Shown: in pieces, positions 7,673-43,993 of the stretch
Numbering within the stretch: the stretch's first letter is position 1
Layout: every line of letters begins with the position of its first letter
Source of the DNA: Candidatus Kerfeldbacteria bacterium
Lineage (GTDB): Bacteria > Patescibacteriota > Patescibacteriia > UBA9570 > XYC2-FULL-38-9
Direction of reading: 5' to 3'
NCBI GenBank assembly: GCA_016182555.1
Contig: JACPGJ010000002.1
Span: 48,040 to 112,039, forward strand
Length of the DNA: 64,000 bases
The notes under the pieces: model-generated
Told to the model about the DNA's origin: nothing
Database searches by the model: none
Seen by the model: the letters and a program-made list of their open reading frames with translations, nothing else
Made by a program: the position numbers and the translations under genes

Positions 7673-7684
7673 TTTGATCTCCTC

Positions 7685-8733: not shown

Positions 8734-8765
8734 ACTTGATTCAAAAATTAAATTACAATAAAAGT

Positions 8766-24116: not shown

Positions 24117-24127
24117 GAGATTCTTGA

Positions 24128-24161
24128 GACCGCCTCTTCACAGGGGCGGTCTTTTGTTTTT
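24128..24161 (+). terminator. Rho-independent terminator (GACCGCC-loop-GGCGGTC + T-run)
   Basis: gaccgcctcttcacaggggcggtcttttgttttt directly after the 24116 stop. Confidence 0.7.
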
Positions 24162-25665: not shown

Positions 25666-25738
25666 CTTGCGGCAGTATTTTTCCTATGATATTTGGGCGA
25701 AAGAGCTATTTTTTTATTATATAAATTTTGAGCATGTT

Positions 25739-27052: not shown

Positions 27053-27059
27053 TGAATGT

Positions 27060-28031
27060 ATGAAAAAGCTTATTGTCACGATTCCCGCATTCAATGAAGA
27101 GGAAAATATTGCCGAAGTGATTCGTGAAATTCCACGAACGATTCCGGGTATCGATTGTGTAGAAGTATTGGTTTTTGATGATGGGTCTACTGACCGAACA
27201 TGTGAACTTGCTCGTGCTGCTGGTGCTGAACATATTCGTACACATGCACGTAATAAAGGTTTGGCGATTACGTTTAAAGAATCGTTGTGGGAAGCATTAC
27301 AATTGGGCGCAGACATTATTGTGAACACCGATGGCGACAATCATTATGACCAATCACGCATTCCGGAGCTCGTTGCACCGATTTTGGCTGGAGCTGCTGA
27401 TATTACGATCGGTTCTCGGAAAGTCGCAGAGCTCGAGCACATGCCATTTCTGAATAAACATTTGAATAGAATTGGGAGTTATGTGTTGACGAAGTGGGTG
27501 GGCATGCCGCGGATGGATGTGTCCACTGGCTACCGTGGCTATTCACGCACTGCCGCGATTCAACTGGGCGTCTATTCGTTACATACATACGTGCATACTA
27601 CGCTGCTTTCCGCGCAAGATTTGCATTTGAATATTTTGGAAGTGCCGATTAAAGCCCGCAAAGTGACGCGTCGTTCGCGGTTGATTAAGAGTATTCCGAG
27701 TCATTTGTGGAAGGCGAGTGTGAATATTGTTCGTAATGTGGTGTTATTTCGACCGTTGCGTTTTTTCGGTATTTGTTCTGTAGTGTTGTTTGGCGTTGGA
27801 GCCGCAGCCATCAGTCGGTTCCTCTATTTTTATTTTATTGATGGTGGTCGTGGCCATGTGCAATCATTGATTCTTGCTGGAGTATTGATCATTCTCAGTT
27901 TCAATAGCTTGATGCTTGGGTTCTTGGGGTCTTCTATGGGGTGGTCGCGTAAAATTAGTGAAGAGATATTATTTTTTATTAAGAAAAGAGAATTAGAACA
28001 ATACACACATGACAAAGTTGATCACAATTAG
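27060..28031 (+). CDS. GT2 polyprenyl-phosphate glycosyltransferase (GtrB/DPM1-like) with C-terminal TM helices
   Basis: IVTIPAFNEEENI, VLVFDDGSTDRT, DGDNHYD (DxD), and two C-terminal TM segments. Confidence 0.75.
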   Translation: MKKLIVTIPAFNEEENIAEVIREIPRTIPGIDCVEVLVFDDGSTDRTCELARAAGAEHIRTHARNKGLAITFKESLWEALQLGADIIVNTDGDNHYDQSRIPELVAPILAGAADITIGSRKVAELEHMPFLNKHLNRIGSYVLTKWVGMPRMDVSTGYRGYSRTAAIQLGVYSLHTYVHTTLLSAQDLHLNILEVPIKARKVTRRSRLIKSIPSHLWKASVNIVRNVVLFRPLRFFGICSVVLFGVGAAAISRFLYFYFIDGGRGHVQSLILAGVLIILSFNSLMLGFLGSSMGWSRKISEEILFFIKKRELEQYTHDKVDHN

Positions 28032-28212
28032 CGACCAGCTCTTTTTAGAGCTTGAAGGAGTGCTCAAAAAAAAAGGAGGCGCTGCAGATATTCATGCCTA
28101 CGTGGAGGAATTGTTGCAAAAAGCCTTGCTTGCCGAAACCGATGGCATTTATAAGCCACACGATGAAGCAGAGATTCGTGATCGGTTGAAATCGCTTGGG
28201 TACATTGATTAA
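28009..28212 (+). CDS. Ribbon-helix-helix (CopG/Arc-like) small protein, paralog A
   Basis: 67 aa. The N-terminal beta-strand/helix pattern and the C-terminal ...EAEIRDRLKSLGYID are shared with the 38832-39038 product (...EADVKKRLEDLGYLD). Confidence 0.45.
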   Translation: MTKLITISDQLFLELEGVLKKKGGAADIHAYVEELLQKALLAETDGIYKPHDEAEIRDRLKSLGYID

Positions 28213-28241
28213 ACGTATTGGTGTGCTACGACCTTCACGCC

Positions 28242-28293
28242 AATTCTTCGAGAGCTTCGTTTTGCTTCGCAAATACGTGCTCTCTCCAGAATT
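28242..28293. repeat. Palindromic intergenic repeat, copy A (reverse orientation) of AATTCTGGAGAGAGCACGTATTTGCGAAGCAAAACGAAGCTCTCGAAGAATT
   Basis: 52-bp core with internal inverted repeats AATTCT/AGAATT and GAGAGC/GCTCTC. Other copies at 34444-34495, 36275-36326 and 43921-43972. Confidence 0.75.
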
Positions 28294-28334
28294 GTCGTTA
28301 CGGTCGTACATATAACCACTAACTTATTATATTT

Positions 28335-29501
28335 ATGGAACATGTTTTAATCCCTCCTCATGGTAACGTATTAGTCAATCGCGTATTATCTCCGGAGCAC
28401 GCGAAGGTGGCAAAAGAAAAAGCTGCTTCATTAGTACAAATCACGATTGACGAAGAACAGATTAAAGATATTAAAAATATTGCGCGTGGTGTATTGAGCC
28501 CATTGACTGGCCTGATGAACGAAGCCGATTTTGTGCGTGTGGTGAATGAAATGCGCTTAGCGAATGGTATACTCTGGTCGATGCCAATGGTATTAGATGT
28601 GAGTGAAGAAGAAGCTGGCCGCATGAAAACTGGTGACGAAGTGGCGTTGATAGACGAGCAAAAAAATGTGATTGCGATTCTTCATGTTGGCGATATCTAT
28701 TCTTATGATGCTATGCATGTAACGCGGCAAGTCTATGGAACAAATGACCAGGCGCATCCGGGCGTGGACCGTTGGATGAAAATGAAACCGCTCCTTGTGG
28801 GTGGGTTGATCGACTTGGTGGATAACTCCAAGGAACCGTATTATGAATTTAACCTTGATCCATTAGAAACTCGTTTTTTGTTTAAGACTCGTGGGTGGAA
28901 AACCGTAGTGGGTTTTCAAACGCGTAATGCACCGCACCGAGCTCATGAATATTTACAACGTATCGGTTTAGAATTATGTGATGGGCTGTTTATCAACCCA
29001 ATTATTGGTATGAAAAAAGTTGGTGATTTCAAAGATGAGATGATCATGAAAACATACGATTACATGGCGAAGCAAGTATATGCGAAAGACCGCGTGGTTT
29101 GTTCTATTTTACCGTCGCGCATGAATTATGCTGGTCCTCGGGACGCTATTTACCACGCCATTATTCGCAAAAACTTTGGTTGTACGCATTTCATTGTTGG
29201 CCGTGACCATGCCGGCGTTGGTGATTATTATGGCACATACGCTGCGCAAGAAATTTTTGAAAACATTGCCGCAGAAGATATTGGCATCACCATTTTGAAG
29301 CTCGAAAATTCGTTTATGTGTAAGAAGTGTGAAACGGTTTCGACCTCGAAAACTTGTGGCCATCAGGACTCCGACCGTGTTCCACCTTCCGGCACCAAAA
29401 TTCGTAACTTGTTGACTGAGAAAAAACCAGTGCCATGGGAAATTATGCGCCCCGAAGTAGTAGAAATTTTGTTGTCGGTCGATAATCCGTTTGTGGAATA
29501 A
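28335..29501 (+). CDS. sat: Sulfate adenylyltransferase (ATP sulfurylase)
   Basis: GFQTRNAPHRAHEYLQ (the QTRN/HRAHE active-site motifs), preceded by a PUA-like N-domain. Confidence 0.85.
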   Translation: MEHVLIPPHGNVLVNRVLSPEHAKVAKEKAASLVQITIDEEQIKDIKNIARGVLSPLTGLMNEADFVRVVNEMRLANGILWSMPMVLDVSEEEAGRMKTGDEVALIDEQKNVIAILHVGDIYSYDAMHVTRQVYGTNDQAHPGVDRWMKMKPLLVGGLIDLVDNSKEPYYEFNLDPLETRFLFKTRGWKTVVGFQTRNAPHRAHEYLQRIGLELCDGLFINPIIGMKKVGDFKDEMIMKTYDYMAKQVYAKDRVVCSILPSRMNYAGPRDAIYHAIIRKNFGCTHFIVGRDHAGVGDYYGTYAAQEIFENIAAEDIGITILKLENSFMCKKCETVSTSKTCGHQDSDRVPPSGTKIRNLLTEKKPVPWEIMRPEVVEILLSVDNPFVE

Positions 29502-29511
29502 TGTCATTGGT

Positions 29512-29603
29512 TTGATCCTCTCGAGGCATCTGTTCGTTGCTAGCGTCCACCCCTTCGGGGATGGCCGACAAATCGCATCTTCACAGATGCCTCTGCGGAT
29601 CAA
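29512..29603 (+). ncRNA. Structured GC-enriched intergenic element (nested stems, including a CCCC-UUCG-GGGG tetraloop hairpin)
   Basis: Outer stems TTGATCC/GGATCAA and AGGCATCTG/CAGATGCCT enclose gtccaccccttcggggatggc. Not followed by a U-run on either strand. Confidence 0.3.
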
Positions 29604-29666
29604 AAAATAGATACACCACTACGGATTTCAATATCAAGCTATAATAAATACTATTGGCAATTATCC

Positions 29667-30683
29667 ATGTCCTTATCTATAGATTTTCAAGAATATATAG
29701 AAGAGCAGCAGCCAAATAAATTGTTGTTGTTGTACCATTGGGATACCGACGGTTTGGCGTGTGCGGCGTTATTTTTGAATTATTTGGATGTCGCAAGTCC
29801 GAATACTGAAGTGGTGTTGATGCACCCAACAATTAACAATTATTTTTTGCTTCCGCGGGAGTATGCGCAGATTGCCGCGATGAATGTAGATGCCATTCTC
29901 ACGACCGATATTAATTTCCCACCCGATGTGTTTACTCGGTTGGAGCAAATCGTGCAGCCCGTATTTGTGTTTGACCATCATTCGCAAACCGCGGGCATTG
30001 GAAAGCCTGGTGTGCAAAATCCAAATTATCCTGGCTGTTCGATGCTGGTGAATGATTATTTAATGCAGCCGTTGTCTTTGGTCTCCGTGTTGGGTATGGT
30101 GGGTGATCAAGAAGAACGTATCCGAGAGTTCACCGCTTTTTATCCGCAAGTGGAAGAGATGATGAAAGAACATGGATTGTCGTTTGAAGAAATATTACGT
30201 CTGACGAAATTGATTGACACGATGTATATTGTGGGCGACACGGAAGGATTAGAATATGCGATTGCATTGTTGCGCCGTAATCCTATTGATGCGCTGACTG
30301 ACCAACGCTTGTTGAGCGCGGAAAAAGAGATCGCCGCAGAATTAGCGCGTGAATGTGCAAAAGAAATGAAACCGATGGGCGAGCATGTGTTGTACCAGCC
30401 GATTGATTCGCGGATGAGTTTAATTTCCGAAGTTACCCGTGCTCGTGCCCGCGAATTTCCAGAGAGCATTATCATGACCGATCACGTGCGTGGCGATGAT
30501 GCTAGCCTGTATCTTCGGCGCCGCAATGCACCAATTGACTTGGGCTGCGTGGTTGATTTGGCGCGAAAACTCGGTTACAATGCTGGAGGAAAGCCGGAAG
30601 TGGCAGGCGTCGTGTTGCCCGCAAAAGCGCTTGTCGATTTCCGTGCACAAGTGATTCAATTATTAGAACAACTTTATGGATAA
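29667..30683 (+). CDS. DHH-family phosphoesterase (NrnA-like pAp phosphatase/nanoRNase)
   Basis: LLLYHWDTDGLACAA (DHH motif I/II region), VFVFDHH (DHH motif III) and a DHHA1-like C-terminus. Sits between sat and cysC. Confidence 0.65.
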   Translation: MSLSIDFQEYIEEQQPNKLLLLYHWDTDGLACAALFLNYLDVASPNTEVVLMHPTINNYFLLPREYAQIAAMNVDAILTTDINFPPDVFTRLEQIVQPVFVFDHHSQTAGIGKPGVQNPNYPGCSMLVNDYLMQPLSLVSVLGMVGDQEERIREFTAFYPQVEEMMKEHGLSFEEILRLTKLIDTMYIVGDTEGLEYAIALLRRNPIDALTDQRLLSAEKEIAAELARECAKEMKPMGEHVLYQPIDSRMSLISEVTRARAREFPESIIMTDHVRGDDASLYLRRRNAPIDLGCVVDLARKLGYNAGGKPEVAGVVLPAKALVDFRAQVIQLLEQLYG

Positions 30684-32073
30684 ACGAAAAGTGATGGTGA
30701 TTGGTTTAGATTGTGCCACACCGCAATTATTATTCGAACGGTATAAAAAAGATTTACCGAATATTTCGCGTTTGATGGAACAGGGGACATGGGGAAAGTT
30801 ACGCAGTACCACCCCACCTATTACGGTTCCGGCATGGGCAGCGATGACCACTTCGAAACACGCTGGTGATTTAGGCGTGTATGGTTTTCGTTCACGGAAA
30901 GCTGGGGCGGCGTATGACGATATGGATATTGCGCATGGCGGCATGATTACTGAAAAACGTGTGTGGGACTATTTGGGTGATGCCGGGTACAAAGTGGGCA
31001 TGCTTGGTGTTCCACAAACCTACCCCATCACGAAGCCGGTCAATGGCATGCAAGTGACGTGTTTTCTCACTCCAAGCACAAAAGATGAATTCACCTGGCC
31101 GCGTGAACTCAAAAAAGAAATTGTAGATATGGTCGCGCCCGATGACTATATTTTTGATTTTGCGAATCGTTCACAAGAGCCACCGGAAAAGGCGCTCGAA
31201 ATTATTATCAAAATGACGAAACAGCGTCAGAAAATTTTTCGCCATTGGGTGCAAAATAAGAACTGGGATTTTTTGATGATGGTAGAAATGGGGGTAGATC
31301 GCATTCACCATTACCTGTGGCATTTTATGGATCCACAGCATAAAGATTATCTACCGGGTAACCCATTTGAAGGAAAGATTTTAGATTATTACCGCGATAT
31401 CGATGCGTTTATTGGCGAGATGCAGCAATTGGCGCCAAAAGATACGGTATTGTATGTTGTCTCTGACCACGGCGCAAAACGGATGGAAGGAATGTTTGTG
31501 ATTAACGAATGGTTAATCGACCATGGATATTTAGTATTGAAATCATTTCCATCAACACCAACGACTATTGAAAAATGTGATGTGGATTGGAGCCGTACCA
31601 AAGCGTGGGCGTGGGGTGGGTTCTATTCTCGATTGTTTGTGAATGTAGCTGGCCGCGAACCACAGGGATGCGTTCCACCAGAAGAAGTTGATGCGTTGCT
31701 GGAAGAGATTCGCACCAAGCTTATGGAAGAGCGCGTGGGACCAAATGGTGAAGAGATGCCGCCGCACCAAATTTATCGCTCGCAGGAGTTATATGATGTC
31801 ACGAATGGTGATTCACCTGATTTGTTGATTTTTTGGGGAGACCTGTTTTGGAAAGTAGCGGGAACCGTTGGGTATCACACCCACTACATTGAACACGATG
31901 ACAAAGGGTTGGATTATGGCGTGCATGATTGGAATGGAGTGTTTGTGAAATATGATCCTGCGCATCCTGGGAAGGGCGAACGCCCTGACTTGAATATTTT
32001 GGATGTCACCCCAACTATTTTACATGATTTTGGTATAACCATTCCGAGTGGCTTGCGAGGGAAAGTAATATAA
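30676..32073 (+). CDS. Alkaline-phosphatase-superfamily protein (type I phosphodiesterase/nucleotide pyrophosphatase-like)
   Basis: VIGLDCATPQLL...TPPITVPAWAAMTTSKHAGDLGVYGF matches the NPP/Phosphodiest metal-site and nucleophile-Thr region. Paralogous to 36350-37963. Confidence 0.6.
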   Translation: MDKRKVMVIGLDCATPQLLFERYKKDLPNISRLMEQGTWGKLRSTTPPITVPAWAAMTTSKHAGDLGVYGFRSRKAGAAYDDMDIAHGGMITEKRVWDYLGDAGYKVGMLGVPQTYPITKPVNGMQVTCFLTPSTKDEFTWPRELKKEIVDMVAPDDYIFDFANRSQEPPEKALEIIIKMTKQRQKIFRHWVQNKNWDFLMMVEMGVDRIHHYLWHFMDPQHKDYLPGNPFEGKILDYYRDIDAFIGEMQQLAPKDTVLYVVSDHGAKRMEGMFVINEWLIDHGYLVLKSFPSTPTTIEKCDVDWSRTKAWAWGGFYSRLFVNVAGREPQGCVPPEEVDALLEEIRTKLMEERVGPNGEEMPPHQIYRSQELYDVTNGDSPDLLIFWGDLFWKVAGTVGYHTHYIEHDDKGLDYGVHDWNGVFVKYDPAHPGKGERPDLNILDVTPTILHDFGITIPSGLRGKVI

Positions 32074-32077
32074 GGCA

Positions 32078-33757
32078 GTGAACCATAGTATCCGACAGTT
32101 GACTGTATACCGATTTCGCATCGCATTAGTTGTTATTTTGTTTGGTGCGGCCTGGTTACGGCTCTATGATATTGCAGAAGTGAAGAATGTGGATGAGCCG
32201 AACATTATTCATCGTGCGGTGAGTGTGGCGAATGGGCAGATGCATATTCACTGGTACAACTGGCCAGGGCAATCATTGATTCGTATTGATGGGGTAGTGT
32301 TTAAAATGGTGCAGATGACACGCGCAGTGAGCAATTCAGATTGGCGTCAGCCCATGACTGTGTTATATCAAGAACAAAAAAATTATTTTGAAACCATTGC
32401 TCATATAGTCACAGTTCTATTTGGGTTGATTTCTATTACGTTGGTCTTTTTCATCGCCGAACGATTATATTCTTCATTCGCTGGTACCCTTGCGGCACTT
32501 TTTCTATCCGTGAGTTATTTACATGTACGCCACTCGCGGTTTGCCACGCCAGATGTGCCGATGACCACGGCATTGTTAGCAAATATTTTGATTGCTCTTT
32601 TGTTATGGAATGAACAGCGTGCAAAGCGTGTACAACTTCTGTACCTGTTGGCGGGTATCGTAGTTGGTTTTGCTATTGCGACAAAATACACTGGTGCACT
32701 TGCGTTGATACCGATTATTTTCGTTCATATCATTCGATTTTTTGAACAGTATCACTGGCAGTGGAAAAAAATTATTCGTTCGAGTTGGCGTCTAATCAAT
32801 CTACCCGTACTGTTATTCTTCTTAGGCGCATTGGCTATGCATACCGTATTGAATCCATTTTTCTTTGTAGATATTCAAGCAATTCTGAAGCAATTATTGT
32901 ATGAAGCTCAACCGATCCGTATGGGGGTTGATTGGTCGGGTCAGAAGTATATTTTTTTGAAGAATCTACTCTTTTATCTCCGCGGGCCATTTGCTTGGAG
33001 TGGAACAGCCATTACCGGTATTGCCTATACAACTATTCTGTATAGTCTTTGGCGTTTTCATCGCACACGTTGGCGACCATTCACAGTGTTGAGTATTTTT
33101 TTTGTTATGACATTAGTTGGATTATCGTCCTTGGGTCTGCATTGGAGTCGTTGGGCTGTGCCATTTTCACCACTCATTGCAATTGCTGCTGGCGTTGGGA
33201 TTGCCGCTATTGTGGTCAAGATTCAGCAGCGCTGCAGACAACAGTTTCTCGTAGCGAGCATCACGACGTTTTTTTTAGTGATGATTATTTTTCCTCAAGC
33301 GTTGGTGAGCTTTGTCGCTGTGCATAGTTTTGAAGATCAAAGTACCTCACGGCAAATGGGTAAGTATATTCGTCAACATCTACCCACGGGAAGTACGATT
33401 GTCGCTGACACCTATTATCTTGAAACGGGTAAAGATTATCGCCTAGAAACTCCTCGCATGAAATTATATGCGCGCCTGCCAGAAGACTATCGCCAACAAG
33501 GAGTGGATTATTTGGTGATTAAAACGCAGCGTCATTCCTACGCCCGAAAACAGCCAGAGCTGTATCCAGAGATATTGACATTTTTTGATCAGCTGGACTA
33601 TTCAGCAAAAAAGATTGTCAGAGTTGTGCCAACGGATGATTCTTTGTTGAACCATAAGCGCGATATAGGGGTATATACATGGCTAGCGCAGCATGGATTT
33701 TCCAATCTCTTTTCTATTGAAAATGGAGGTGCGTTGACGCTGTATCAATTGCCATAA
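32078..33757 (+). CDS. Polytopic membrane protein, GT-C-fold glycosyltransferase-like (PMT/ArnT-like), uncertain
   Basis: About 12 predicted TM helices with an N-terminal hydrophilic loop containing DEP. Architecture similar to 46578 and 48547. Confidence 0.4.
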   Translation: MNHSIRQLTVYRFRIALVVILFGAAWLRLYDIAEVKNVDEPNIIHRAVSVANGQMHIHWYNWPGQSLIRIDGVVFKMVQMTRAVSNSDWRQPMTVLYQEQKNYFETIAHIVTVLFGLISITLVFFIAERLYSSFAGTLAALFLSVSYLHVRHSRFATPDVPMTTALLANILIALLLWNEQRAKRVQLLYLLAGIVVGFAIATKYTGALALIPIIFVHIIRFFEQYHWQWKKIIRSSWRLINLPVLLFFLGALAMHTVLNPFFFVDIQAILKQLLYEAQPIRMGVDWSGQKYIFLKNLLFYLRGPFAWSGTAITGIAYTTILYSLWRFHRTRWRPFTVLSIFFVMTLVGLSSLGLHWSRWAVPFSPLIAIAAGVGIAAIVVKIQQRCRQQFLVASITTFFLVMIIFPQALVSFVAVHSFEDQSTSRQMGKYIRQHLPTGSTIVADTYYLETGKDYRLETPRMKLYARLPEDYRQQGVDYLVIKTQRHSYARKQPELYPEILTFFDQLDYSAKKIVRVVPTDDSLLNHKRDIGVYTWLAQHGFSNLFSIENGGALTLYQLP

Positions 33758-33812
33758 GGGATCAATTTCTGTATACTTAAATATGTATATTACCAGGTGA
33801 ATTTTTTATTTT

Positions 33813-34418
33813 ATGCAACAAAAAGCAACAAATATTACGTGGCACGATGGCGAGGTAACCAAAACTCACCGCGAAGGTTTGCTGAAACAACAAGGGGTTA
33901 TTTTGTGGTTTACGGGTTTATCCGGTTCAGGGAAATCCACGATTACCGTGGCGTTGGAACAGGCGCTATATCAACATGGCCACGCCAGTTACCGGTTAGA
34001 TGGCGACAATATTAGGCATGGGTTGAATAAAGATTTAGGGTTTTCACCTGAAGACCGGACAGAAAATATCCGTCGGATTGGGGAAGTCGCAAAACTCATG
34101 ATGGACGCTGGTTTAGTAGTGATGACTTCATTTATTTCTCCATACCGCGCAGATCGTGATTTAGCTCGCAGCCTCGTCGCGCCAGGAGAATTTTTGGAAA
34201 TATACGTAAAATGTTCGTTGGAAAAATGTGAAGAGCGTGACCCGAAAGGCTTGTACAAAAAAGCCCGTGCAGGTGAGATTCCAGAATTTACAGGTATTAG
34301 CGCTCCGTATGAAGAACCAGAAGAACCGGAACTGGTGTTGGATACCGCCACGCTGAGTGTGGATGAAGCTGTGCAAACGATTCTTGAATACTTGAAACAG
34401 CATAACTACATTCATTAG
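33813..34418 (+). CDS. cysC: Adenylyl-sulfate kinase
   Basis: [18 protein letters not shown]-loop and ...[34 protein letters not shown], the canonical APS kinase. Confidence 0.9.
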
Positions 34419-34443
34419 TATTATTTCATTTGGCCGTAACGGC

Positions 34444-34495
34444 AATTCTGGAGAGAGCACGTATTTGCGAAGCAAAACGAAGCTCTCGAAGAATT
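34444..34495. repeat. Palindromic intergenic repeat, copy B
   Basis: Core identical to copy A (reverse-complemented). The flanks ccgtaacggc / ggcgtgaagg also match copy A. Confidence 0.75.
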
Positions 34496-34529
34496 GGCGT
34501 GAAGGACCAAATGTAGAGATGTATCATCC

Positions 34530-36245
34530 ATGAAGAAACATTTTTTCAAAATAATTATTATACTCGCAATCTGTATTGGTATTGGTGTGGGTTCGGGTGT
34601 TGTCTATTTTAATGATCACGCATGGGGTGCGTGGGGAGATGATTCGGCGGGGTATATCTATCTTGCTGGTCGCATGTATTCTGGAAAACCATTAATTTAC
34701 ACAGATGACTTAGCGTTGTCTGGTTTCAATTTTTTTGGAGATGAAAAATTGGCACGATGGTTACTGCCTACTCATCATCAATTTATTAACACGCACGGGG
34801 TTGCCGCATCCAAATATCCAGTGGGGCTATCGCTGTTGATGGTGCTTGCTGCAAAAATAATGCATTCCTCTTTTGGTTTTTATTTGTTGAATCCGTTGCT
34901 TGCCGCCGTGAACCTTGCACTCATCTACCTGTTAGCCCTCGTACTCTTTCCAAAATATCGATACCGGCATGCCATTGGCGTGCTTGCGTCATTCTTTCTT
35001 GGTATTTCGCACTTATACTACGACCATGCTCTTGCACAGCCAATGCGTGAAATTCCCTCTATAACGTTTTTATTATTGATGGCCATTCCACTCGTAAGAG
35101 TATTGGATCGTTTTCAAGAAAAACATATTTCAGCAAGAGATCGGTTGTTGAATTATGCGTTGTTGGCGCTTGCCGGTCTTGCCTATGGTATAGCGATTGA
35201 TGTTCGGGAGACGAGTATTATGTTATTTCCCGGAATCGTTCTTGCTGTATTGATGGTGTTGCGAAAACAATGGCGCGCAGTGATCATCAATGGAGCAGTA
35301 TTTATATTCATGATGGCGATTGCCCTCACTCCAACGATTCTCAACTCCATTCATCTCTCGGAGGATAAGGAAGTATTCAAAGCACGCGATAAAAGTTCAG
35401 TGGTGATTTTGTCGAATATCAACCACTTGGATACCATTAGTACCGATAATGTTTTTGACAATGAAGGACGTTTTCGTCCAGGAAAAGGTTCATTGCCGCA
35501 TTATTGGGACATTATGCAACAAGCCTCTCCGGTGCCATATTTTCTGGCATTTGTATTGCTCGGAATTATTTTTCTCTGGCGTATGAACAAGCCCAAGACG
35601 ATATTTTTATTGCTTTGGTGTCTTGGTACGCTCACCATTTTTGCTTTATGGATCAACCCATACTCTCGGTATATTTTACCAATGTTTCCACCACTCATGT
35701 TGTTTGCCAGTTTTGGTATTTGTTCATTTTTTCAAGAGTTTCTTCCTCGTGTTGTTCCAGAGCGGCGTGTCGTCCGTGTGCTGGCGTTTGTGGTCGTTGC
35801 TATTACATTTGGTTATGGGTATCAACCATTATTTGCAGAAGTGAAAGAGAATTTGCATAGCGATGTCTATATATTCAAAGCGATATCCAAAACTGATTTA
35901 GAAACGTTGATCGACTTGGGTGGCCAGTTGAAAACGTATCAGAAACCGGTATTGATGTTTTCCGGTTCGTGGCAATATGGAACGAGTGAAACATTAGAAG
36001 CCCATACGGGTTTGAAAGCTATTCGGTTTCCACTAGAGCAGCGTTTCGATTTTAGTAAAGACGAAGTATATACTTTTTTTAACCAGATGCTCGGAGATGG
36101 ATATACATTGTTCGTTTGGATTGATGCCACGTCATCACCTGAAGCCTTAGATTTTGTGAATCAATATAACGGTGAAGAAATTAAAACACTTCAATTTACT
36201 TTTCAGCCGGATGTTCATATTTATTCTGTTTCTTTGCAACGATAA
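34530..36245 (+). CDS. Polytopic membrane protein, probable GT-C-type glycosyltransferase, uncertain
   Basis: 571 aa with many TM helices. No soluble catalytic domain recognised. Confidence 0.4.
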   Translation: MKKHFFKIIIILAICIGIGVGSGVVYFNDHAWGAWGDDSAGYIYLAGRMYSGKPLIYTDDLALSGFNFFGDEKLARWLLPTHHQFINTHGVAASKYPVGLSLLMVLAAKIMHSSFGFYLLNPLLAAVNLALIYLLALVLFPKYRYRHAIGVLASFFLGISHLYYDHALAQPMREIPSITFLLLMAIPLVRVLDRFQEKHISARDRLLNYALLALAGLAYGIAIDVRETSIMLFPGIVLAVLMVLRKQWRAVIINGAVFIFMMAIALTPTILNSIHLSEDKEVFKARDKSSVVILSNINHLDTISTDNVFDNEGRFRPGKGSLPHYWDIMQQASPVPYFLAFVLLGIIFLWRMNKPKTIFLLLWCLGTLTIFALWINPYSRYILPMFPPLMLFASFGICSFFQEFLPRVVPERRVVRVLAFVVVAITFGYGYQPLFAEVKENLHSDVYIFKAISKTDLETLIDLGGQLKTYQKPVLMFSGSWQYGTSETLEAHTGLKAIRFPLEQRFDFSKDEVYTFFNQMLGDGYTLFVWIDATSSPEALDFVNQYNGEEIKTLQFTFQPDVHIYSVSLQR

Positions 36246-36274
36246 CAGGTAAATGTTTTTTGAGCTGTAGAGAA

Positions 36275-36326
36275 AATTCTGGAGAGAGCACGTATTTGCG
36301 AAGCAAAACGAAGCTCTCGAAGAATT
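36275..36326. repeat. Palindromic intergenic repeat, copy C (between convergent genes)
   Basis: Extended palindrome gagaaaattctgg...ccagaattttctc. Confidence 0.75.
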
Positions 36327-36349
36327 TTCTCGAAAGGCTAAAAAGAGGA

Positions 36350-37963
36350 TTACAACTTTATCTTTCCGAGAGCCTGATGAATAGATGACTTCTCACTGAT
36401 GAGTTTAGACGAAGGACCTTTCTCTACATCACGTATATATGCTTCTGCAGAGGTTTTGAATACAGATTTCTCTACGTGGCCATCGCAATCAGACGGTACA
36501 GGTAAATTCAACAAATGAAGTAATAGGGGAGTAATATCTTGCATTTTTAATCCTTCCACAGTTTTGTTTTCGGCAAAATCTGGCCCGAGCGCCATGAATA
36601 TCCCAAATTGATCGTGTTTGTTCTGAATTTCCTCTGCAAATAATTTCCCAGATTGAAATTGTCCTACTAACCAATAGTCACCAAGTTCAAAAAAGATATC
36701 TGGTGCTTGGTCTGGTGCATCATTTCCATAGACTTCTTCACGCGTCATAATGCGGGAAATAATTGGCCGGCCAGCATCATCGCGAATGGCACGCATTTTT
36801 TCAATCACCTCTGCACGAAGCGCAGGATATTCTTCTTTTGAAACTGTACCGTCTTTATATACCCATGCTTTGTTGATATACGCGCTGGTGATATAGCTCC
36901 CTTTTGGAAAACACACTTTCGTTTTACTAAAATCAATGCCCACATTCACTTTCAAGTTCACCGGTAAATATCGTTTTACCACTTTATGATAGGTAAATTT
37001 TGCGGCGCGTTCGAGCATAGGGAATTTGCTCAAAAATTCAAACACGCCAGAATTGATATTGATTCGTTTCTTTTGAGCACGGACTTTATCGGCTTCTTTC
37101 GCGCGGCGAGTTGCTGCACCACGAAATTGGTCAGCGTTCGTGTTGGTGGTTAAATATCCTTCCTTTTCTAACCAACGGTTAAAGTAAAATATTTTTTTAA
37201 ATGATTGAAACCCATGGTCGGAAACGATAATCAGGTTCGCGTCTTTTGGAAGGTGTTCCAAAAACCATGCCAGGTGCTCATCTACTTTTTCAAAAACACG
37301 CCGCGCTGATGCTTCTTCTTTTTCTTCTAGCTCGGTATAGGCCAAATGTGAAATCCAATCTGTATGCGAGAAGAGGTAAAAGAAAAAATCCCAGGGTTTT
37401 TTTTCAAATAGCCAACGCACACATGTGGTTTGTTCTTCCAAGTGCTTCAACAAATCTTCAATATATTCCTGCCGGCGTTCTTGCAGGCGCACACTTTCAT
37501 CGGGTGTAAGCCGATAATTTTTAAACGGCGGAAATTCTTCTTTTAGTGATTCAGGGTAAATCCATTTGTCGCCTTGGGTAAGCAAATCGGTAATCGTAAT
37601 ACTGTTCTTTAATTTTGGTGGGTAACTACCCGGCAGGTTCACGAGAATGGTTTTCATACCTTGCTCGTGCAGCATTTCATAAATCGTTTTATCACGAAAG
37701 TCGCTGCTTGTTGGAAATTTCATGTTGCCGAGTGAATCTGTGGGTAGCATGAAATCAAAAATACCGTGCTTACCCGGGTGTTTGCCAGTGGCAAATGTTC
37801 CCCACGATGCGGCGGTCATTGCTGGAATTGTGGATTCCAATTTTCCGCTGACACCCTGTTCCATGATCTTTTTCACCGTGGGCATGTAGCCTTTTTCGGC
37901 AAATGGTTTGAGGAGTTTCCAGGTGGCTCCATCGAGCCCGAGAACAACCGTTTTTTTCTTCAT
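36350..37963 (-). CDS. Alkaline-phosphatase-superfamily protein (NPP/phosphodiesterase-like), paralog 2
   Basis: Start at the internal MKKKTVVLGLDGATWKLL. ...STIPAMTAASWGTFATGKHPGKHGIFDF aligns to the 30676 protein. Confidence 0.6.
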   Translation of the reverse strand: MKKKTVVLGLDGATWKLLKPFAEKGYMPTVKKIMEQGVSGKLESTIPAMTAASWGTFATGKHPGKHGIFDFMLPTDSLGNMKFPTSSDFRDKTIYEMLHEQGMKTILVNLPGSYPPKLKNSITITDLLTQGDKWIYPESLKEEFPPFKNYRLTPDESVRLQERRQEYIEDLLKHLEEQTTCVRWLFEKKPWDFFFYLFSHTDWISHLAYTELEEKEEASARRVFEKVDEHLAWFLEHLPKDANLIIVSDHGFQSFKKIFYFNRWLEKEGYLTTNTNADQFRGAATRRAKEADKVRAQKKRININSGVFEFLSKFPMLERAAKFTYHKVVKRYLPVNLKVNVGIDFSKTKVCFPKGSYITSAYINKAWVYKDGTVSKEEYPALRAEVIEKMRAIRDDAGRPIISRIMTREEVYGNDAPDQAPDIFFELGDYWLVGQFQSGKLFAEEIQNKHDQFGIFMALGPDFAENKTVEGLKMQDITPLLLHLLNLPVPSDCDGHVEKSVFKTSAEAYIRDVEKGPSSKLISEKSSIHQALGKIKL

Positions 37964-38147
37964 AGATAGCGTTTTATTATGGATGAGCTTGAATTGTTGA
38001 GCAATATGAACAATAATAATAGTATTGGAGATTGGCCATTCTGGCAAGCACAGAGCAGAAAGCGGAGGATGCTTTTATTTTCTGTGTTTGCCGGAGGGGG
38101 CTGATTCTTTCTCCTTATTAAAGGGGGGACGAAAGGAAAGGCCATTT

Positions 38148-38678
38148 ATGTCGTCGACACAAGTTTTTAATGCGGCGGTGGAGTGGCTCGAAGCGCGCGA
38201 AGCTCTCTATCGCTCGGCGGTTCTCGCTGGGCAAGAGGGTGAGCTCCATGCCAGCCGGCAAGTCGAGTGGTTTGCCGGGTTGGTGGCGCAGTTTCGTGAT
38301 CTCGAGCTGCTCTGGCTCGAGGCAGGTCTTGATGATAAAGCTGTGCGATATTTGTGCACGGCGTTTCATCAGTCCTGCCGGCCACCCACGCGAAGCTCGG
38401 AAGAGTCGTTGGAGGTACGCACCCGCCGACGCGAGTGCTACTTCCTTCGCCAGGCTCTACGAGCTTCTGGTCTGCGACCGAATGGCAAGCTCCTTGAAAC
38501 CCAGGAGCTTTGCCTACAGCTCGCTGGAGTGGCTGAGCGATTCGCTGCGCGAGCAGGGGGTGCTCGTCAAAACCAACGGGCTGAGGAGTTGTCTCAGCTC
38601 GCTGACCACTTTCGCCGCGAAGCGAGAGAGGTCTATGAGCTCGCAATCATGCGCGGGCTCCTGAGCAAAGCGGCGTAG
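38148..38678 (+). CDS. Hypothetical protein encoded in a short GC-rich islet
   Basis: Start MSSTQVFNAAVEW. Ala/Arg/Leu/Glu-rich and predicted helical. GC visibly higher than the flanks. The opposite-strand ORFs are judged to be artefacts. Confidence 0.35.
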   Translation: MSSTQVFNAAVEWLEAREALYRSAVLAGQEGELHASRQVEWFAGLVAQFRDLELLWLEAGLDDKAVRYLCTAFHQSCRPPTRSSEESLEVRTRRRECYFLRQALRASGLRPNGKLLETQELCLQLAGVAERFAARAGGARQNQRAEELSQLADHFRREAREVYELAIMRGLLSKAA

Positions 38679-38775
38679 GTTTTTTTTCATGGCGCTGCCA
38701 GAGCGCTACTCACCATCCGTTCGTTTTCTGGACATCAATACGCGCCCGCTTCAAAGCGTGTTGATAAAACGAACT

Positions 38776-38831: not shown

Positions 38832-39038
38832 TTAATCTAAATAACCCAAATCTTCCAAGCGTTTTTTTACATCTGCTTCTTGCGCTGCCGTATAGCCCGT
38901 CGCGGTATCGTTTGCTGTTTGTTTTAACACCTCTTCTAAAATGTAGCACACATACTGCTCAACGGATTGAAATTCGCCAGAGGCTTTTACGCGTTCTTCC
39001 AATTGTTTTGCCAACGTTTCCGGTAATGTAATGTTCAT
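38832..39038 (-). CDS. Ribbon-helix-helix (CopG/Arc-like) small protein, paralog B
   Basis: MNITLPETLAKQLEERVKASGEFQSVEQYVCYILEEVL is a classic RHH N-terminus. C-terminal tail shared with 28009-28212. Confidence 0.5.
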   Translation of the reverse strand: MNITLPETLAKQLEERVKASGEFQSVEQYVCYILEEVLKQTANDTATGYTAAQEADVKKRLEDLGYLD

Positions 39039-39200
39039 GGGAGTCTATAATTAGTTCACTTTATTCGTGCAATTATAGTATACATTTTCGTTCTCATCGT
39101 CAACTATTCAGCAACCATTGTTATTTAAAATTGAAAAGTGGACTGCAACCATTGCTTTTTTCATTTATTTCGATATGATGTGTATATTATTTATAACTGT

Positions 39201-43144: not shown

Positions 43145-43145
43145 A

Positions 43146-43880: not shown

Positions 43881-43920
43881 AAAATATATTAATGGAAAAG
43901 TATTTGAGAGCCAGAGCGGC

Positions 43921-43972: not shown

Positions 43973-43993
43973 GTCGCTACGGCTCTCTACAGC

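Follow-up and report, generated by a model that had tools for sequence, protein, structure and literature searches.

A 64,000-nucleotide stretch of DNA from Candidatus Kerfeldbacteria (Patescibacteria; CPR), referred to here as the window, carries genes for PAPS synthesis within a large cell-surface glycan gene island, together with genes for two NPP-type proteins. What is the PAPS used for, which protein transfers the sulfuryl group, and what do the NPP proteins contribute? The original prediction proposed that PAPS serves sulfation of a surface polymer and that an unrecognised protein, possibly one of the NPP or GT-C-like proteins, acts as the sulfotransferase.

PAPS genes in a glycan gene block

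Gene calls together with Pfam and NCBIfam searches recovered every gene that had been listed, in its place. The PAPS module and the genes for GtrA, SDR, UDP-glucose dehydrogenase, polyprenyl-phosphate-type GT2 and GT-C proteins form one co-directional block, and a strong terminator-like hairpin (24126-24153) lies directly 5' of the GtrA gene. The plus-strand genes of this region are as follows.

24194-24643, plus strand: GtrA-family small membrane protein, first gene of the block (Pfam GtrA_DPMS_TM, 1e-27)
24640-25665, plus strand: SDR, NAD-dependent sugar-nucleotide epimerase/dehydratase (Pfam Epimerase, 1e-38; GDP_Man_Dehyd, 2e-37)
25667-27052, plus strand: UDP-glucose 6-dehydrogenase (three UDPG_MGDP_dh domains; NCBIfam TuaD, 8e-171)
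27060-28031, plus strand: GT2 of the polyprenyl-/dolichyl-phosphate hexose transferase type, AglJ-like (Pfam Glycos_transf_2, 6e-16)
28009-28212, plus strand: RHH-like protein 1, C-terminal tail ...RDRLKSLGYID
28335-29501, plus strand: ATP sulfurylase, sat (Pfam ATP-sulfurylase, 2e-84; PUA_2, 4e-50)
29667-30683, plus strand: DHH-family 3'-phosphoadenosine-5'-phosphate (pAp) phosphatase (PDB 8A8K match)
30676-32073, plus strand: NPP1, cytoplasmic NPP-fold bimetallo enzyme (PF01663, 1e-44)
32078-33757, plus strand: GT-C 1, PMT_2/ArnT-like polytopic glycosyltransferase (PMT_2, 2e-14, exceeding the cut-off; PMT, 3e-9)
33813-34418, plus strand: APS kinase, cysC (Pfam APS_kinase, 2e-70)
34530-36245, plus strand: GT-C-like polytopic membrane protein 2 (PMT_2, 21.2 bits, under the cut-off of 26.1; weak ArnT match)

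Both sat (NCBIfam PRK04149, 506.7 bits against a cut-off of 387) and cysC (PRK03846, 316.6 bits against 163) exceed the thresholds of their models. The DHH protein scores slightly under the Pfam gathering thresholds for DHH and DHHA1; its sole PDB sequence match is 8A8K, the PAP phosphatase MtPAPP of M. thermolithotrophicus (E = 1.3e-18, residues 18-319), with which the HWDTDG, DHH and AGGK motifs align. These matches bear out the assignment of the three genes as a PAPS-synthesis and pAp-recycling set, with a DHH protein of the pAp-phosphatase type. The DHH gene overlaps the start of NPP1 by 8 bp. Among the glycan genes, the UDP-glucose 6-dehydrogenase exceeds the cut-off of NCBIfam NDP-sugDHase (468 bits), GT2 matches AglJ (3e-28) and Dol-P hexose transferase (5e-19), both under the cut-off, and the SDR reached no equivalog in the NCBIfam search. 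By its family, the GtrA protein is a candidate flippase for a polyprenyl-phosphate sugar.

No match to PAPS_reduct, sulfite-reductase, CysD/CysN or Sulfotransfer models was found at E≤0.01 among the long ORFs of the window that are neither nested nor antisense (at least 120 aa; apart from a few in the GC-rich stretch at 4-8 kb), in agreement with the earlier statement that cysH, cysDN, sulfite reductase and canonical sulfotransferases are absent from it. Neither a reductive partner nor a canonical sulfotransferase turned up in the five related CPR loci that were examined along with 10 kb of flanking sequence, and a sulfate transporter was likewise not seen within the window. A role for PAPS in surface-polymer sulfation fits both the co-directional block with glycan genes and the lack of a reductive partner in the window. 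Because the module shares its block with UDP-glucuronate, GT2, GtrA and GT-C genes, a surface-polymer glycan, not assimilation, is the most likely sink for PAPS.

The insertion of GT-C 1 between NPP1 and cysC is specific to the lineage: the gene was found at this position elsewhere only in L001, from the same organism, and in the other CPR loci NPP1 is followed directly by cysC. In CPR relatives, cysC has GT-C-like protein 2 as a conserved partner on its downstream side, with homologs lying after cysC in L002-L005 (36-62% identity) and also in L082 and L086.

NPP1 is a core member of the PAPS module

The NPP1 family is strongly conserved, being present in at least 581 species genomes and 45-50% identical across bacteria and archaea. 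Among 51 loci with complete flanks, 37 have sat and/or cysC next to NPP1, across many phyla; ten loci of Chloroflexota encode sat-NPP1 fusions in a single ORF. Neither sat nor cysC lies within 3 kb in the other 14 of the 51, several of which are EPS-type clusters where NPP1 is accompanied by GTs, an NPP2-like gene and a GHMP kinase. GT-C neighbours of NPP1 are confined to CPR loci. NPP1 belongs to the core of the PAPS module and is no interloper in it, with sat and cysC, rather than GT-C genes, as its conserved neighbours.

The predicted structure of NPP1 (pLDDT 95.4) has ENPP1/5/6 and Xac NPP as its top fold matches (TM ~0.57). Residues D12, T50, D208, H212, D264, H265 and H417 are invariant in the family alignment, which thus retains the metal ligands and the Thr nucleophile, and four arginines (R72, R209, R319, R327) are likewise invariant. 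The arginine set and metal site would fit a small polyanionic substrate. PPi is a product of the sat reaction.

Comparison with archaeal PAPS clusters

The window order of RHH-like gene, sat, DHH, PF01663 and cysC is that of Thermococcus onnurineus and Pyrococcus yayanosii, with GT-C 1 as an extra gene in the window. Thermococcus onnurineus TON_1704-1707 is a PAPS cluster with the same gene order (PMC4463584), and P. yayanosii PYCH_17520-17560 and other archaea have copG, sat, DHH pApase, a type I phosphodiesterase/nucleotide pyrophosphatase and cysC (PMC8268124), RHH-like gene 1 occupying the position of archaeal copG. The layout is therefore not new; it has already been reported in Thermococcales and in other archaea (PMC8268124, PMC4463584). 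In the archaeal loci L007 and L079, RHH, sat, DHH, NPP1 and cysC follow one another in this order, and NPP1 is 46% identical to that of the window.

From the shared Pfam family and the position in the gene order, we infer that NPP1 is equivalent to TON_1705/PYCH_17550. TON_1705, a PF01663 protein, has been characterised as a weak inorganic pyrophosphatase (PMC4463584, PMC9653972), and by this analogy NPP1 probably hydrolyses PPi and so pulls the sat reaction. PPi may not be the true substrate of TON_1705, a poor PPase with a Km of 18.8 uM and a kcat of 2.1 s-1 (PMC9653972 Table 1) against ~3e4 s-1 for Ton1914, the family-I PPase of T. onnurineus (PMC9653972). PPi hydrolysis is still the probable activity of NPP1; with sat and cysC as partners, ten sat fusions and a PPi hydrolase, TON_1705, at the same position, NPP1 is a poor candidate for the sulfotransferase.

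NPP2 and the adjoining genes

The genes beyond the block are as follows.

36350-37963, minus strand: NPP2, distant COG3379/PF01663 paralog, 537 aa from ATG (PF01663, 1e-39)
38832-39038, minus strand: RHH-like protein 2, upstream of NPP2 on the same strand, C-terminal tail ...KKRLEDLGYLD
40142-40819, plus strand: CDP-alcohol phosphatidyltransferase 1 (Pfam CDP-OH_P_transf, 4e-12)
41323-45460, minus strand: operon for CDP-alcohol transferase 2, a glycerol-1-phosphate dehydrogenase-like protein, a sugar/alcohol-phosphate nucleotidyltransferase and a Wzx-type flippase (Pfam)

The two NPP genes had been described as paralogs interleaved with the module. Both do belong to PF01663, but they are distant (about 25-28% identity only), and NPP1 lies within the module whereas NPP2 lies outside the plus-strand block, in convergent orientation to it. 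NPP2 homologs (n = 617) are mostly from Patescibacteria, often in two to three tandem copies, and this expanded family has its genes in glycan clusters, both in CPR bacteria and in haloarchaea. The predicted structure (pLDDT 91.2) has the NPP fold, and the full NPP metal site and Thr nucleophile are retained, with D11, T/S50, D202, H206, D249, H250 and H450 invariant in the family alignment.

As a candidate for a non-canonical sulfotransferase, NPP2 is the best one left. Such an activity is plausible because Halobacterium Agl30 and Agl31, sulfatase-like members of the alkaline-phosphatase superfamily, provide a genetic precedent as sulfotransferases (2025; PMC11980604). Alternatively, NPP2 could act in the CDP-alcohol/glycerol-phosphate pathway, as a phosphodiesterase or as a phosphotransferase. 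An operon like 41323-45460 runs on continuously with RHH-NPP2 in relatives L004, L082/83 and L088; in the window its dehydrogenase matches NCBIfam G1P dehydrogenase PRK00843 (6e-83, under the equivalog cut-off). CDP-alcohol phosphatidyltransferase 1, with NCBIfam DIPPS-like and archaetidylinositol-phosphate-synthase-like matches under the cut-off, is kept after the GT-C-like gene in CPR relatives (L003-L005 homologs, 44-52% identity). Against NPP2 as the sulfotransferase, NPP2-type genes also occur in GT-C/GT clusters without sat or cysC within 10 kb (L084, L087); such an association is what the original prediction had named as counter-evidence, and it is seen here at the scale of loci only. 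We infer that a non-canonical protein transfers the sulfuryl group; NPP2 is the leading candidate.

Small RHH-like proteins

The two small proteins are paralogs, as had been proposed (32% identity, E = 2e-8); their RHH assignment is without statistical support, neither Pfam nor a PDB profile search giving a significant match to that fold. At least 27 loci have a homolog of RHH-like protein 1 immediately 5' of sat or NPP1. RHH-like protein 2 has homologs upstream of NTP-transferase and NPP2 genes in L082/83 (53% identical), of NPP1-like, sat and NPP2 genes in L088, and of DHH and cysC in L086. Of their proposed standing as module regulators, conserved membership holds, with copG as the archaeal equivalent, and the regulatory role is only likely. 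The RHH-like proteins share with cysC, some NPP1 and many NPP2-like proteins a C-terminal tail, ...RLxxLGY(L/I)D, which mimics the C-terminus of APS kinase; this is a new observation.

A GC-rich insert (58-60%) of ~0.65 kb at 38100-38750 separates RHH-like gene 2 from NPP2. Its folding z-scores are -7.1 (plus strand) and -3.9 (minus strand); no Rfam family matched it, the ORF 38025-38678 had no Pfam match, and no relative was present in any fetched locus.

A PAPS supply, probably for glycan sulfation

We give a probability of roughly 60% to the reading of this region as a PAPS-supply module with NPP1 as the probable PPase and glycan sulfation, not assimilation, as the sink. ATP sulfurylase would make APS and PPi, NPP1 would remove PPi and so pull the unfavourable sat reaction, APS kinase would make PAPS, and the DHH enzyme would hydrolyse the toxic by-product pAp once PAPS is spent; the small RHH-like protein is a likely regulator or adaptor. 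The block would also make UDP-glucuronate, with GT2 loading sugar on polyprenyl phosphate, GtrA flipping it and GT-C transferring it outside the membrane. Heat-loving archaea are already known to have this conserved PAPS-supply module, of which the window carries a bacterial copy; the PAPS that it makes would go into the sulfation of a glycan precursor of the surface polymer, one that is cytoplasmic and probably lipid-linked.

A sulfate-activation module of archaeal type

An ORF map and profile searches of the window confirmed every gene listed in the original prediction. The sat and cysC genes lie in one cluster, with Pfam and NCBIfam scores that exceed the cut-offs, and the DHH protein is encoded directly after sat. 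Its sole sequence match in the PDB is 8A8K, the MtPAPP of M. thermolithotrophicus (E 1.3e-18), with which the HWDTDG, DHH and AGGK motifs align. Two small proteins had been described as paralogs, and they do share 32% identity (E 2e-8). Neither Pfam RHH_1 (E 0.26) nor NikR in a PDB profile search (E 0.85) matches this family significantly, and we refer to its members as RHH-like.

Genes of the PAPS module and its neighbours in the window
28009-28212, +, RHH-like protein 1, carrying the C-terminal tail described below
28335-29501, +, sat (ATP-sulfurylase, 2e-84, plus PUA_2)
29667-30683, +, DHH/DHHA1 protein, a predicted pAp phosphatase (profile searches)
30676-32073, +, NPP1 (PF01663, 1e-44)
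32078-33757, +, GT-C 1 (PMT_2, 2e-14; 54.3 bits against a cut-off of 26.1)
33813-34418, +, cysC (APS_kinase, 2e-70)
34530-36245, +, GT-C 2, GT-C-like (PMT_2, 21.2 bits, below the cut-off of 26.1; weak ArnT match, E 0.0018)
36350-37963, counted from ATG, −, NPP2 (PF01663, 1e-39)
38832-39038, −, RHH-like protein 2, carrying the same tail

The Pfam scan took in long non-nested ORFs of at least 120 aa at E≤0.01, and across the 64 kb no PAPS reductase, sulfite reductase, CysD/N or sulfotransferase was matched at that threshold, as had been claimed. Five CPR loci with 10 kb flanks also lack cysH/PAPS reductase, sulfite reductase and cysDN, and Sulfotransfer_1/2/3, Stf0 and similar families are absent from the Pfam lists of these loci and of the extra neighbours scanned. 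A crude regular expression for the 5'-PSB (PKxGTT-like) and 3'-PB (RDPxxRxxS-like) motif pair, run over all ORFs of the window and 81 loci, gave a single doubtful match in an unrelated 620-aa ORF. The conserved neighbour families were considered as hidden sulfotransferases and rejected; they are GHMP kinase, SIS isomerase, inositol-1-phosphate synthase, hexapeptide acyltransferase, HypD/E and other housekeeping genes.

The interleaved layout corresponds for the most part to a module already known from archaea, here in a different host. In P. yayanosii, the cluster PYCH_17520-17560 consists of a copG regulator, ATP sulfurylase, DHH pApase, a PF01663-type gene and APS kinase (Jin et al. 2021; PMC8268124); its 'type I phosphodiesterase/nucleotide pyrophosphatase' is thought to degrade PPi, and the copG-sat-pApase-NPP-cysC cluster is also reported in Ferroglobus, Aciduliprofundum, Aeropyrum and Ignicoccus (PMC8268124). 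The equivalent genes of T. onnurineus are TON_1707 (sat), TON_1706 (PAP phosphatase), TON_1705 (pyrophosphatase) and TON_1704 (APS kinase), whose characterisation PMC4463584 credits to Lee et al. (2009, J Bacteriol 191:3415). The window has the same five gene families in the same order, its RHH-like gene being the putative counterpart of copG, with the PF01663 gene between DHH and cysC, and matches PYCH_17540/17550/17560 and TON_1706/1705/1704 save for one GT-C gene before cysC. Also in common are the pAp-phosphatase type of the DHH enzyme, a small gene upstream of sat, and the lack of a recognisable PAPS consumer. The window differs in its bacterial (patescibacterial) host, in the embedding of the module in a polyprenyl-phosphate-sugar/GT-C glycan block, and in having an extra RHH-like paralog and an extra, distant PF01663 paralog, NPP2.

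Among the homologous loci fetched from relatives (numbered with the prefix L), the archaeal loci L007 and L079 read RHH, sat, DHH, NPP1, cysC, with an NPP1 that is 46% identical to the window protein. No Thermococcales protein is among the best 120 matches of either the NPP1 homolog search or a second search seeded with a Thermoplasmatota member, and we infer orthology of NPP1 to TON_1705 from family and position rather than from an alignment. In M. thermolithotrophicus, ATPS, APSK and the DHH-type PAPP (MtPAPP, 8A8K) are likewise encoded together, but that locus has a PAPS reductase, feeds assimilation and has no PF01663 gene described, whereas the window lacks a reductase (PMC10322725).

The module lies within a surface-glycan island

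A strong terminator-like hairpin at 24126-24153 precedes an uninterrupted co-directional block, 24194-36245, in which genes for GtrA, an SDR epimerase/dehydratase, UDP-glucose 6-dehydrogenase and an AglJ/Dol-P-hexose-transferase-like GT2 are followed by RHH-like protein 1, sat, DHH, NPP1, GT-C 1, cysC and GT-C 2. NPP2 is convergent to this block, and the stretch beyond it encodes two CDP-alcohol transferases, a glycerol-1-phosphate-dehydrogenase-like protein (PRK00843, 6e-83), a nucleotidyltransferase, a Wzx flippase, further GT-C and GT4 proteins and a Wzy-like protein, so that the PAPS genes are surrounded by a large surface-glycopolymer island. The block recalls GtrA/GtrB/GtrC- and Arn-type systems, which divide the work between a GT2 that loads polyprenyl phosphate, a small flippase that moves it, and a GT-C enzyme for the transfer outside the cytoplasm: it holds a GtrA-family protein, a polyprenyl-phosphate-type GT2, UDP-glucose dehydrogenase, an SDR and GT-C proteins, although the classical systems have no PAPS module.

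The genes beyond NPP2 form a second set (41323-45460, −, and 40142-40819, +), in which the glycerol-1-phosphate (G1P) dehydrogenase-like gene is grouped with the nucleotidyltransferase, flippase and both CDP-alcohol transferases, the latter being DIPPS-like or archaetidylinositol-phosphate-synthase-like. This set, here in a bacterium, is kept in the CPR relatives L004, L082/83 and L088, and its gene content suggests a polymer or lipid bearing sn-glycerol-1-phosphate or another CDP-alcohol-derived group.

It could be argued that the module serves assimilatory sulfate reduction, with the reductive and cysteine-synthesis genes elsewhere in the genome and the placement in a glycan island incidental. 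The archaeal cluster has been labelled 'assimilatory sulfate reduction' (PMC8268124, PMC4463584) and M. thermolithotrophicus uses ATPS, APSK and PAPP for assimilation (PMC10322725), although both papers on the archaeal cluster acknowledge that no reductase or sulfotransferase has been pinned down and call the role 'still unclear' (PMC8268124, PMC4463584). Reductive genes are missing from the 64 kb window and from the 10 kb flanks of the five CPR relatives, and synteny of the module with UGDH, GT2, GT-C and CDP-alcohol transferase genes is kept across CPR lineages. The small genomes and minimal biosynthesis of Patescibacteria also count against assimilation. We regard an assimilatory role as improbable; expenditure of PAPS on sulfation of a surface polymer, as the original prediction had it, is the best reading of the gene context.

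Ribosomal protein S6, SSB, EF-P and a PG_binding domain, all encoded in the window, mark it as bacterial DNA. Upstream of the island are a HepT/MNT-type toxin-antitoxin pair and two Bro-N-domain proteins (2201-3095, −; 8697-9647, +; 10435-11286, +), a hint that mobile-element or phage-derived DNA borders it. A 4 kb segment at 4001-8000 has 57–59% GC as against ∼43% for the genome, and one of its ORFs, 6194-7672, has five Cu-binding motifs of MopE type. Neither rRNA nor any other Rfam family was detected in this segment, which may therefore be foreign DNA or the product of an assembly join. A GC-rich insert of 0.65 kb (38100-38750; 58–60% against a background of ∼43%) lies between RHH-like gene 2 and NPP2 and has a predicted plus-strand RNA structure with z = −7.1. 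It has no Rfam family, no Pfam match for its ORFs and no relative among the fetched loci, and an Rfam scan of it in E-value mode gave only a chance-level snoRNA match. Over the whole window an Rfam scan at the gathering threshold was empty, and ARAGORN reported no tRNA or tmRNA. The Pfam-less ORFs 39138-40133, 38025-38678 and 40831-41316 have no homolog in any related locus; the first of these (+, 331 aa) adjoins a CDP-alcohol transferase gene and has an 'IEFDL...GH' segment that by eye resembles PLC/GDPD-type phosphodiesterases, and it does not look like a sulfotransferase.

NPP1 travels with sat and cysC

Homologs of NPP1 number more than 7,000 and are typically 45–50% identical across a range that takes in Patescibacteria, Aminicenantes, Chloroflexota, Asgard archaea, Bathyarchaeota and Verstraetearchaeota. 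When a single genome of each species was scanned, at least 581 species had an NPP1 relative, and 80 of those loci were fetched. Using tblastn with the window's proteins, and leaving out L001 (the window's own contig), we found sat near NPP1 in 55 loci, cysC in 57 and DHH in 8; GT-C homologs occur near it in only four, all CPR-type. Fifty-one loci have at least 3 kb on each side of NPP1; within that distance both sat and cysC are present in 32 and at least one of them in 37, and no sat or cysC is found in 14. Most often sat comes first, then NPP1 and cysC; Ktedonobacteraceae have NPP1, cysC, sat, with genes for a GHMP kinase and for a SIS (GmhA-like) isomerase after them. NPP1 thus belongs to the core of the sulfate-activation module and is neither an insert nor a GT-C partner.

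Ten Chloroflexota loci (Anaerolineae and others) encode sat and NPP1 as a single ORF of 802–970 aa, typically ∼863 aa. In the Verrucomicrobiota loci L045 and L056 the fusion is of sat and cysC instead, and NPP1 then follows.

Loci with sat-NPP1 fusions (coordinates within the locus where listed)
L009, 8798-11389
L010, 135-2726
L011, 859-3450
L014
L015
L016
L018
L020
L027
L042

Some of the loci without sat or cysC are EPS-type clusters containing GT2, NPP1, GHMP kinase, an NPP2-like gene, acyltransferase and GT4. One such cluster is conserved in Verrucomicrobiota and Acidobacteriota (L035, L064, L066, L077, and L045 with sat and cysC upstream), with the order GT2, NPP1, GHMP kinase, NPP2-like, hexapeptide acyltransferase, GT4, membrane protein, efflux adaptor, TolC-like, flippase and TPR/ligase-like.

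NPP1 is probably a pyrophosphatase

Residues D12, T50, D208, H212, D264, H265 and H417 of NPP1 are invariant in 56 sequences and comprise all of the NPP metal ligands and the Thr nucleophile; several Arg residues are also invariant across the family. Both NPP1 and NPP2 conform to a two-metal site (Asp, Asp/His, Asp/His, His) with a Thr nucleophile in a T-x-P-x-(H/W)-type motif. The NPP1 model (pLDDT 95.4) has a remote NPP fold, with TM about 0.57 and 12–15% identity to ENPP1/5/6 and Xac NPP, and a profile search found no solved structure related to it by sequence. For the NPP1 and NPP2 models together, the best Foldseek matches are ENPP1/3/5/6, Xac NPP and PhnA (E ∼1e-16 to 1e-17, TM 0.5–0.6, 12–15% identity), which are NPPs and not sulfatases. 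Against the Pfam Sulfatase profile NPP1 scores 18.3 bits, below the cut-off of 25, and NPP2 has no match.

PPi is a product of ATP sulfurylase, and its removal pulls an unfavourable reaction. Because NPP1 is fused specifically to sat, because activity on PPi has been reported for TON_1705, and because NPP1 is highly conserved with no shared acceptor-pathway neighbour, we favour a role as PPi hydrolase, with a probability of roughly 0.55–0.6. Physical coupling of PPi removal to sat has a reported analogue: Patron et al. (2008) are said to have described eukaryotic proteins in which ATP sulfurylase and APS kinase are fused along with an inorganic pyrophosphatase, albeit a conventional soluble PPase domain where the ten Chloroflexota ORFs use an NPP-fold enzyme. 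The Km of TON_1705 is 18.8 µM and its kcat 2.1 s−1 (PMC9653972), a turnover some four orders of magnitude below that of the same organism's family-I PPase, which is a caveat to this role (PMC9653972). The 14 fully flanked NPP1 loci with neither sat nor cysC within 3 kb, some of them EPS-type clusters, are further caveats. Some other nucleotide-hydrolase role for NPP1 is improbable. A role for NPP1 as the pAp phosphatase received low weight, since CPR and archaeal loci have the DHH pApase alongside NPP1 and since sat is its fusion partner.

The original prediction had instead counted NPP1 among the candidates for the missing PAPS-dependent sulfotransferase. On that reading, its Thr nucleophile would take the sulfuryl group from PAPS and hand it to an acceptor. 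This would explain why sat, NPP1 and cysC travel as a unit in organisms without a canonical sulfotransferase: the linkage is tight and phylogenetically broad, there is no canonical sulfotransferase near NPP1, and NPP1 is also found in EPS clusters without adjoining sat or cysC. The low PPase turnover of TON_1705 is in keeping with it, as is the genetic identification of AP-superfamily proteins as sulfotransferases in Hbt. salinarum (PMC11980604), and organisms in which ATPS, APSK and PAPP occur together have been postulated to possess a non-canonical sulfotransferase (Jespersen & Wagner 2023; PMC10322725). However, all ten NPP1 fusions are to sat, which makes PPi, and none is to cysC, which makes PAPS; PPi hydrolysis with a low Km is reported for the positional counterpart TON_1705; and 45–50% identity from CPR to Asgard archaea with no common acceptor-pathway neighbour points to a universal small substrate rather than to an acceptor peculiar to one lineage. 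The invariant Arg residues also weigh against sulfuryl transfer. The sat fusions, the sat/cysC linkage and the PPase activity of the counterpart leave NPP1 a poor candidate, and we consider it unlikely to be the sulfotransferase.

NPP2 and its relatives

NPP2 is only 25–28% identical to NPP1, and yet its catalytic set is kept (D11, T/S50, D202, H206, D249, H250 and H450 in 41 sequences, position 50 being T in 36 and S in 5) and its model has an NPP fold (pLDDT 91.2). The 617 homologs detected are mostly from Patescibacteria, often as two or three tandem paralogs. Tandem triplications of ∼520–535 aa each are seen in patescibacterial glycan clusters at L084:10001-14998, L086:5677-10399 and in L085, flanked by Pfam-less membrane-like proteins of ∼485–495 aa. 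In L086 the three paralogs lie opposite a run of RHH-like, DHH, cysC, GT-C-like and CDP-alcohol transferase genes, and L088 reads RHH-like, NPP1-like, sat, NPP2. In L082/83, an operon that runs flippase, NTP transferase, G1P dehydrogenase, CDP-alcohol transferase, RHH-like, NTP transferase closes with NPP2, and cysC, a GT-C gene and NPP1 are nearby. There is no PAPS gene within 10 kb in L087 or in L084, where the three paralogs accompany GT-C and GT genes.

Relatives of NPP2 are also found further afield. Distant extra PF01663 paralogs are present in 16 of the 80 NPP1-anchored loci, in several phyla. All 65 PLSDB records matching NPP1 are haloarchaeal megaplasmids that encode NPP2-type 'alkaline phosphatase family proteins'. 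In L089 and L090, the two that were inspected, the genes are nearer to NPP2 than to NPP1 and lie in GT2/GT operons or clusters, contexts that recall the Agl-type clusters in which glycan sulfation occurs. A third PF01663 class of ∼450 aa, 27–31% identical to NPP1 and to NPP2, is encoded directly 3' of cysC in loci without DHH, and could be a replacement for the pAp phosphatase or another PAPS-using enzyme.

Haloarchaeal NPP2-type genes and members of the third PF01663 class
L089 (Haloferax larsenii plasmid pHl5678-2), 12001-15874, NPP2-type
L090 (Halomontanus rarus plasmid), 990-2753 and 11974-13566, NPP2-type
L018, 12172-13533, third class
L026, 12645-13985, third class
L052, 12099-13463, third class
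L062, 3891-5246, third class
L081, 12313-13650, third class

It has recently been reported that Agl30 (VNG1056C) and Agl31 (VNG1057C), two sulfatase-like proteins of the AP superfamily, sulfate the N-glycan of Halobacterium salinarum, on the evidence of deletion and heterologous expression, the sulfate donor not being addressed (Zaretsky et al. 2025; PMC11980604). Agl7 (HVO_2046) of Haloferax volcanii 'contributes to sulfation' of Dol-P-hexose (PMC3892788). Agl30 and Agl31 resemble the NPPs described here in their AP-like core fold, in their setting in a glycan-assembly cluster with a polyprenyl (dolichyl) phosphate carrier, and in lacking a canonical PAPS-sulfotransferase fold; Agl31 is soluble. 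They belong to the sulfatase (PF00884-like) branch, with the sulfatases 5G2U and 6HHM as best structures, whereas NPP1 and NPP2, with their Thr nucleophile, fall in the NPP (PF01663) branch. A non-canonical sulfotransferase of AP fold is so no longer hypothetical, though in the sulfatase branch and not the NPP branch. NPP2 shares with Agl30/31 the AP-like core domain and the glycan-assembly cluster and falls outside the sulfatase subfamily.

Given this precedent, and the lack of a known PAPS consumer that the literature describes for many module-bearing archaea, NPP2 is a reasonable if tentative candidate for the sulfotransferase. NPP2 and the COG3379 paralogs of its type might be non-canonical sulfotransferases that sulfate a nucleotide- or polyprenyl-phosphate-linked sugar in the cytoplasm, ahead of flipping and GT-C transfer, a reading to which we give a minority share. 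It is consistent with retention of all seven NPP catalytic positions, including the Thr/Ser nucleophile, in a confidently predicted fold; with tandem paralogs within glycan clusters, as expected of acceptor-specific decorating enzymes; and with co-localisation with PAPS genes in the window, L004, L082/83, L086 and L088. The distant paralogs beside sat-NPP1-cysC in 16 of 80 loci, the haloarchaeal relatives in glycosylation operons, and the APS-kinase-like tail that many NPP2-like proteins share with the RHH-like proteins and cysC (see below) support it further. Against it, Agl30/31 are of sulfatase type, sat, cysC and DHH are all absent within 10 kb in L084, with its three tandem copies, and in L087, and the window's NPP2 lacks the canonical LGYLD ending. 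The position of the Kerfeldbacteria NPP2, as last gene of a flippase/NTP-transferase/G1P-dehydrogenase/CDP-alcohol-transferase operon, points equally to phosphodiester chemistry.

At least as likely is that NPP2 is a phosphodiesterase or phosphotransferase of the adjoining glycerol-phosphate/CDP-alcohol pathway, unrelated to sulfation, which we consider possible although well short of an even chance. NPP2 might then act on a teichoic-acid-like polymer, by transferring or trimming a phospho-alcohol substituent. In L082/83 and L088 it continues the operon of flippase, NTP transferase, G1P-dehydrogenase-like and CDP-alcohol transferase genes, with which it is syntenic in L004. Among solved structures, the folds closest to it are those of nucleotide pyrophosphatases/phosphodiesterases, one of them being ENPP6, a choline-specific glycerophosphodiesterase. 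Thr-nucleophile transferases of phospho-alcohols are established in the AP superfamily, LtaS and EptA/MCR-1 being examples, and these count in its favour. However, in L088 NPP2 is directly 3' of sat, the RHH-like gene before NPP2 is a paralog of the one before sat, and NPP2-like proteins of other phyla carry the APS-kinase-type tail and adjoin sat-NPP1-cysC.

A C-terminal tail shared by module proteins

In at least 27 loci, archaeal ones included, a member of the RHH-like family (65–79 aa) is encoded immediately before sat or NPP1. The family is well conserved, with an N-terminal strand-helix-helix, an acidic linker and a tail of the form (Y/F)(S/T)xE(E/D)Exx(I/V)xxRLxxLGY(L/I)(D/E). A search of 12,383 stop-to-stop segments of at least 50 aa, from the window and the loci fetched by then, found this tail 71 times as against ∼1 expected by chance (a rough estimate), and all 71 are in module families. 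It was never found in sat among these segments.

Carriers of the C-terminal tail (71 in all)
RHH-like proteins, 28: both window copies, L004-L008, L025, L033, L043, L044, L073, L079, L082, L086, L088 and others
cysC, 27: L009-L011, L016, L017, L026, L027, L032 and others
NPP2-like proteins, 8 (Verrucomicrobiota, Acidobacteriota and haloarchaeal proteins included): L035, L063, L064, L066, L068, L077, L089:12001-13716, L090:11974-13566
C-terminally extended NPP1, 5: L038, L046, L059, L067
GT2, 1
small ORF after NPP1, 1
haloarchaeal annotated sulfatase, 1

Canonical APS kinases natively end in the same helix (8A8H, ...KLGYL; 7YQ0, ...ELGYL), and the RHH-like proteins and AP-fold enzymes thus carry a mimic of the APS-kinase C-terminus. 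In Chloroflexota, cysC has the native end, a linker and a second copy of the tail. In the window both RHH-like proteins have the tail, while the end of cysC is degenerate (...LKQHNYIH) and NPP2 has a CPR variant (...ALGKIKL).

The tail may be a docking peptide for a common partner, to which NPP2-type enzymes, APS kinase, some NPP1 proteins and RHH-like proteins would all be recruited. That partner might be ATP sulfurylase, the sole module protein never seen to carry the tail. A more speculative proposal is that the NPP2-type COG3379/PF01663 branch, which is tandem-expanded in patescibacterial glycan clusters and occurs also in Verrucomicrobiota, Acidobacteriota, other EPS clusters and haloarchaeal glycosylation operons, is a new family of Thr-nucleophile glycan sulfotransferases, recruited by the tail into a 'sulfation metabolon' with regulatory switching of partners. 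If so, the NPP2-type family would be the missing PAPS consumer of many archaea and bacteria that have sat, cysC and pAp phosphatase and no sulfotransferase or reductase. The APS-kinase-like tail offers a concrete handle for interaction experiments.

Implications for PAPS use

How PAPS is used in organisms with sat, cysC and pAp phosphatase but no reductase or sulfotransferase is an acknowledged question (PMC10322725; PMC8268124), and Jespersen & Wagner (2023; PMC10322725) and Jin et al. (2021; PMC8268124) both describe the PAPS consumer as unidentified in many archaea with this module. The present locus narrows this question and does not answer it. The observations of the original prediction were borne out and its interpretation in part only: NPP1 comes off the list of candidate sulfotransferases because it is a component of the module, and probably the pyrophosphatase of this archaeal-type module, and the sulfotransferase is still missing, with NPP2-type proteins as a candidate. 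The module is far wider than the archaeal literature suggests, with at least 581 species genomes that include Chloroflexota, Aminicenantes, Patescibacteria, Asgard archaea and Bathyarchaeota. In Patescibacteria it is placed in a surface-glycan operon beside a testable candidate family, the NPP2-type proteins, and sulfated surface polymers in these ultra-small episymbiotic bacteria would bear on their attachment to hosts.
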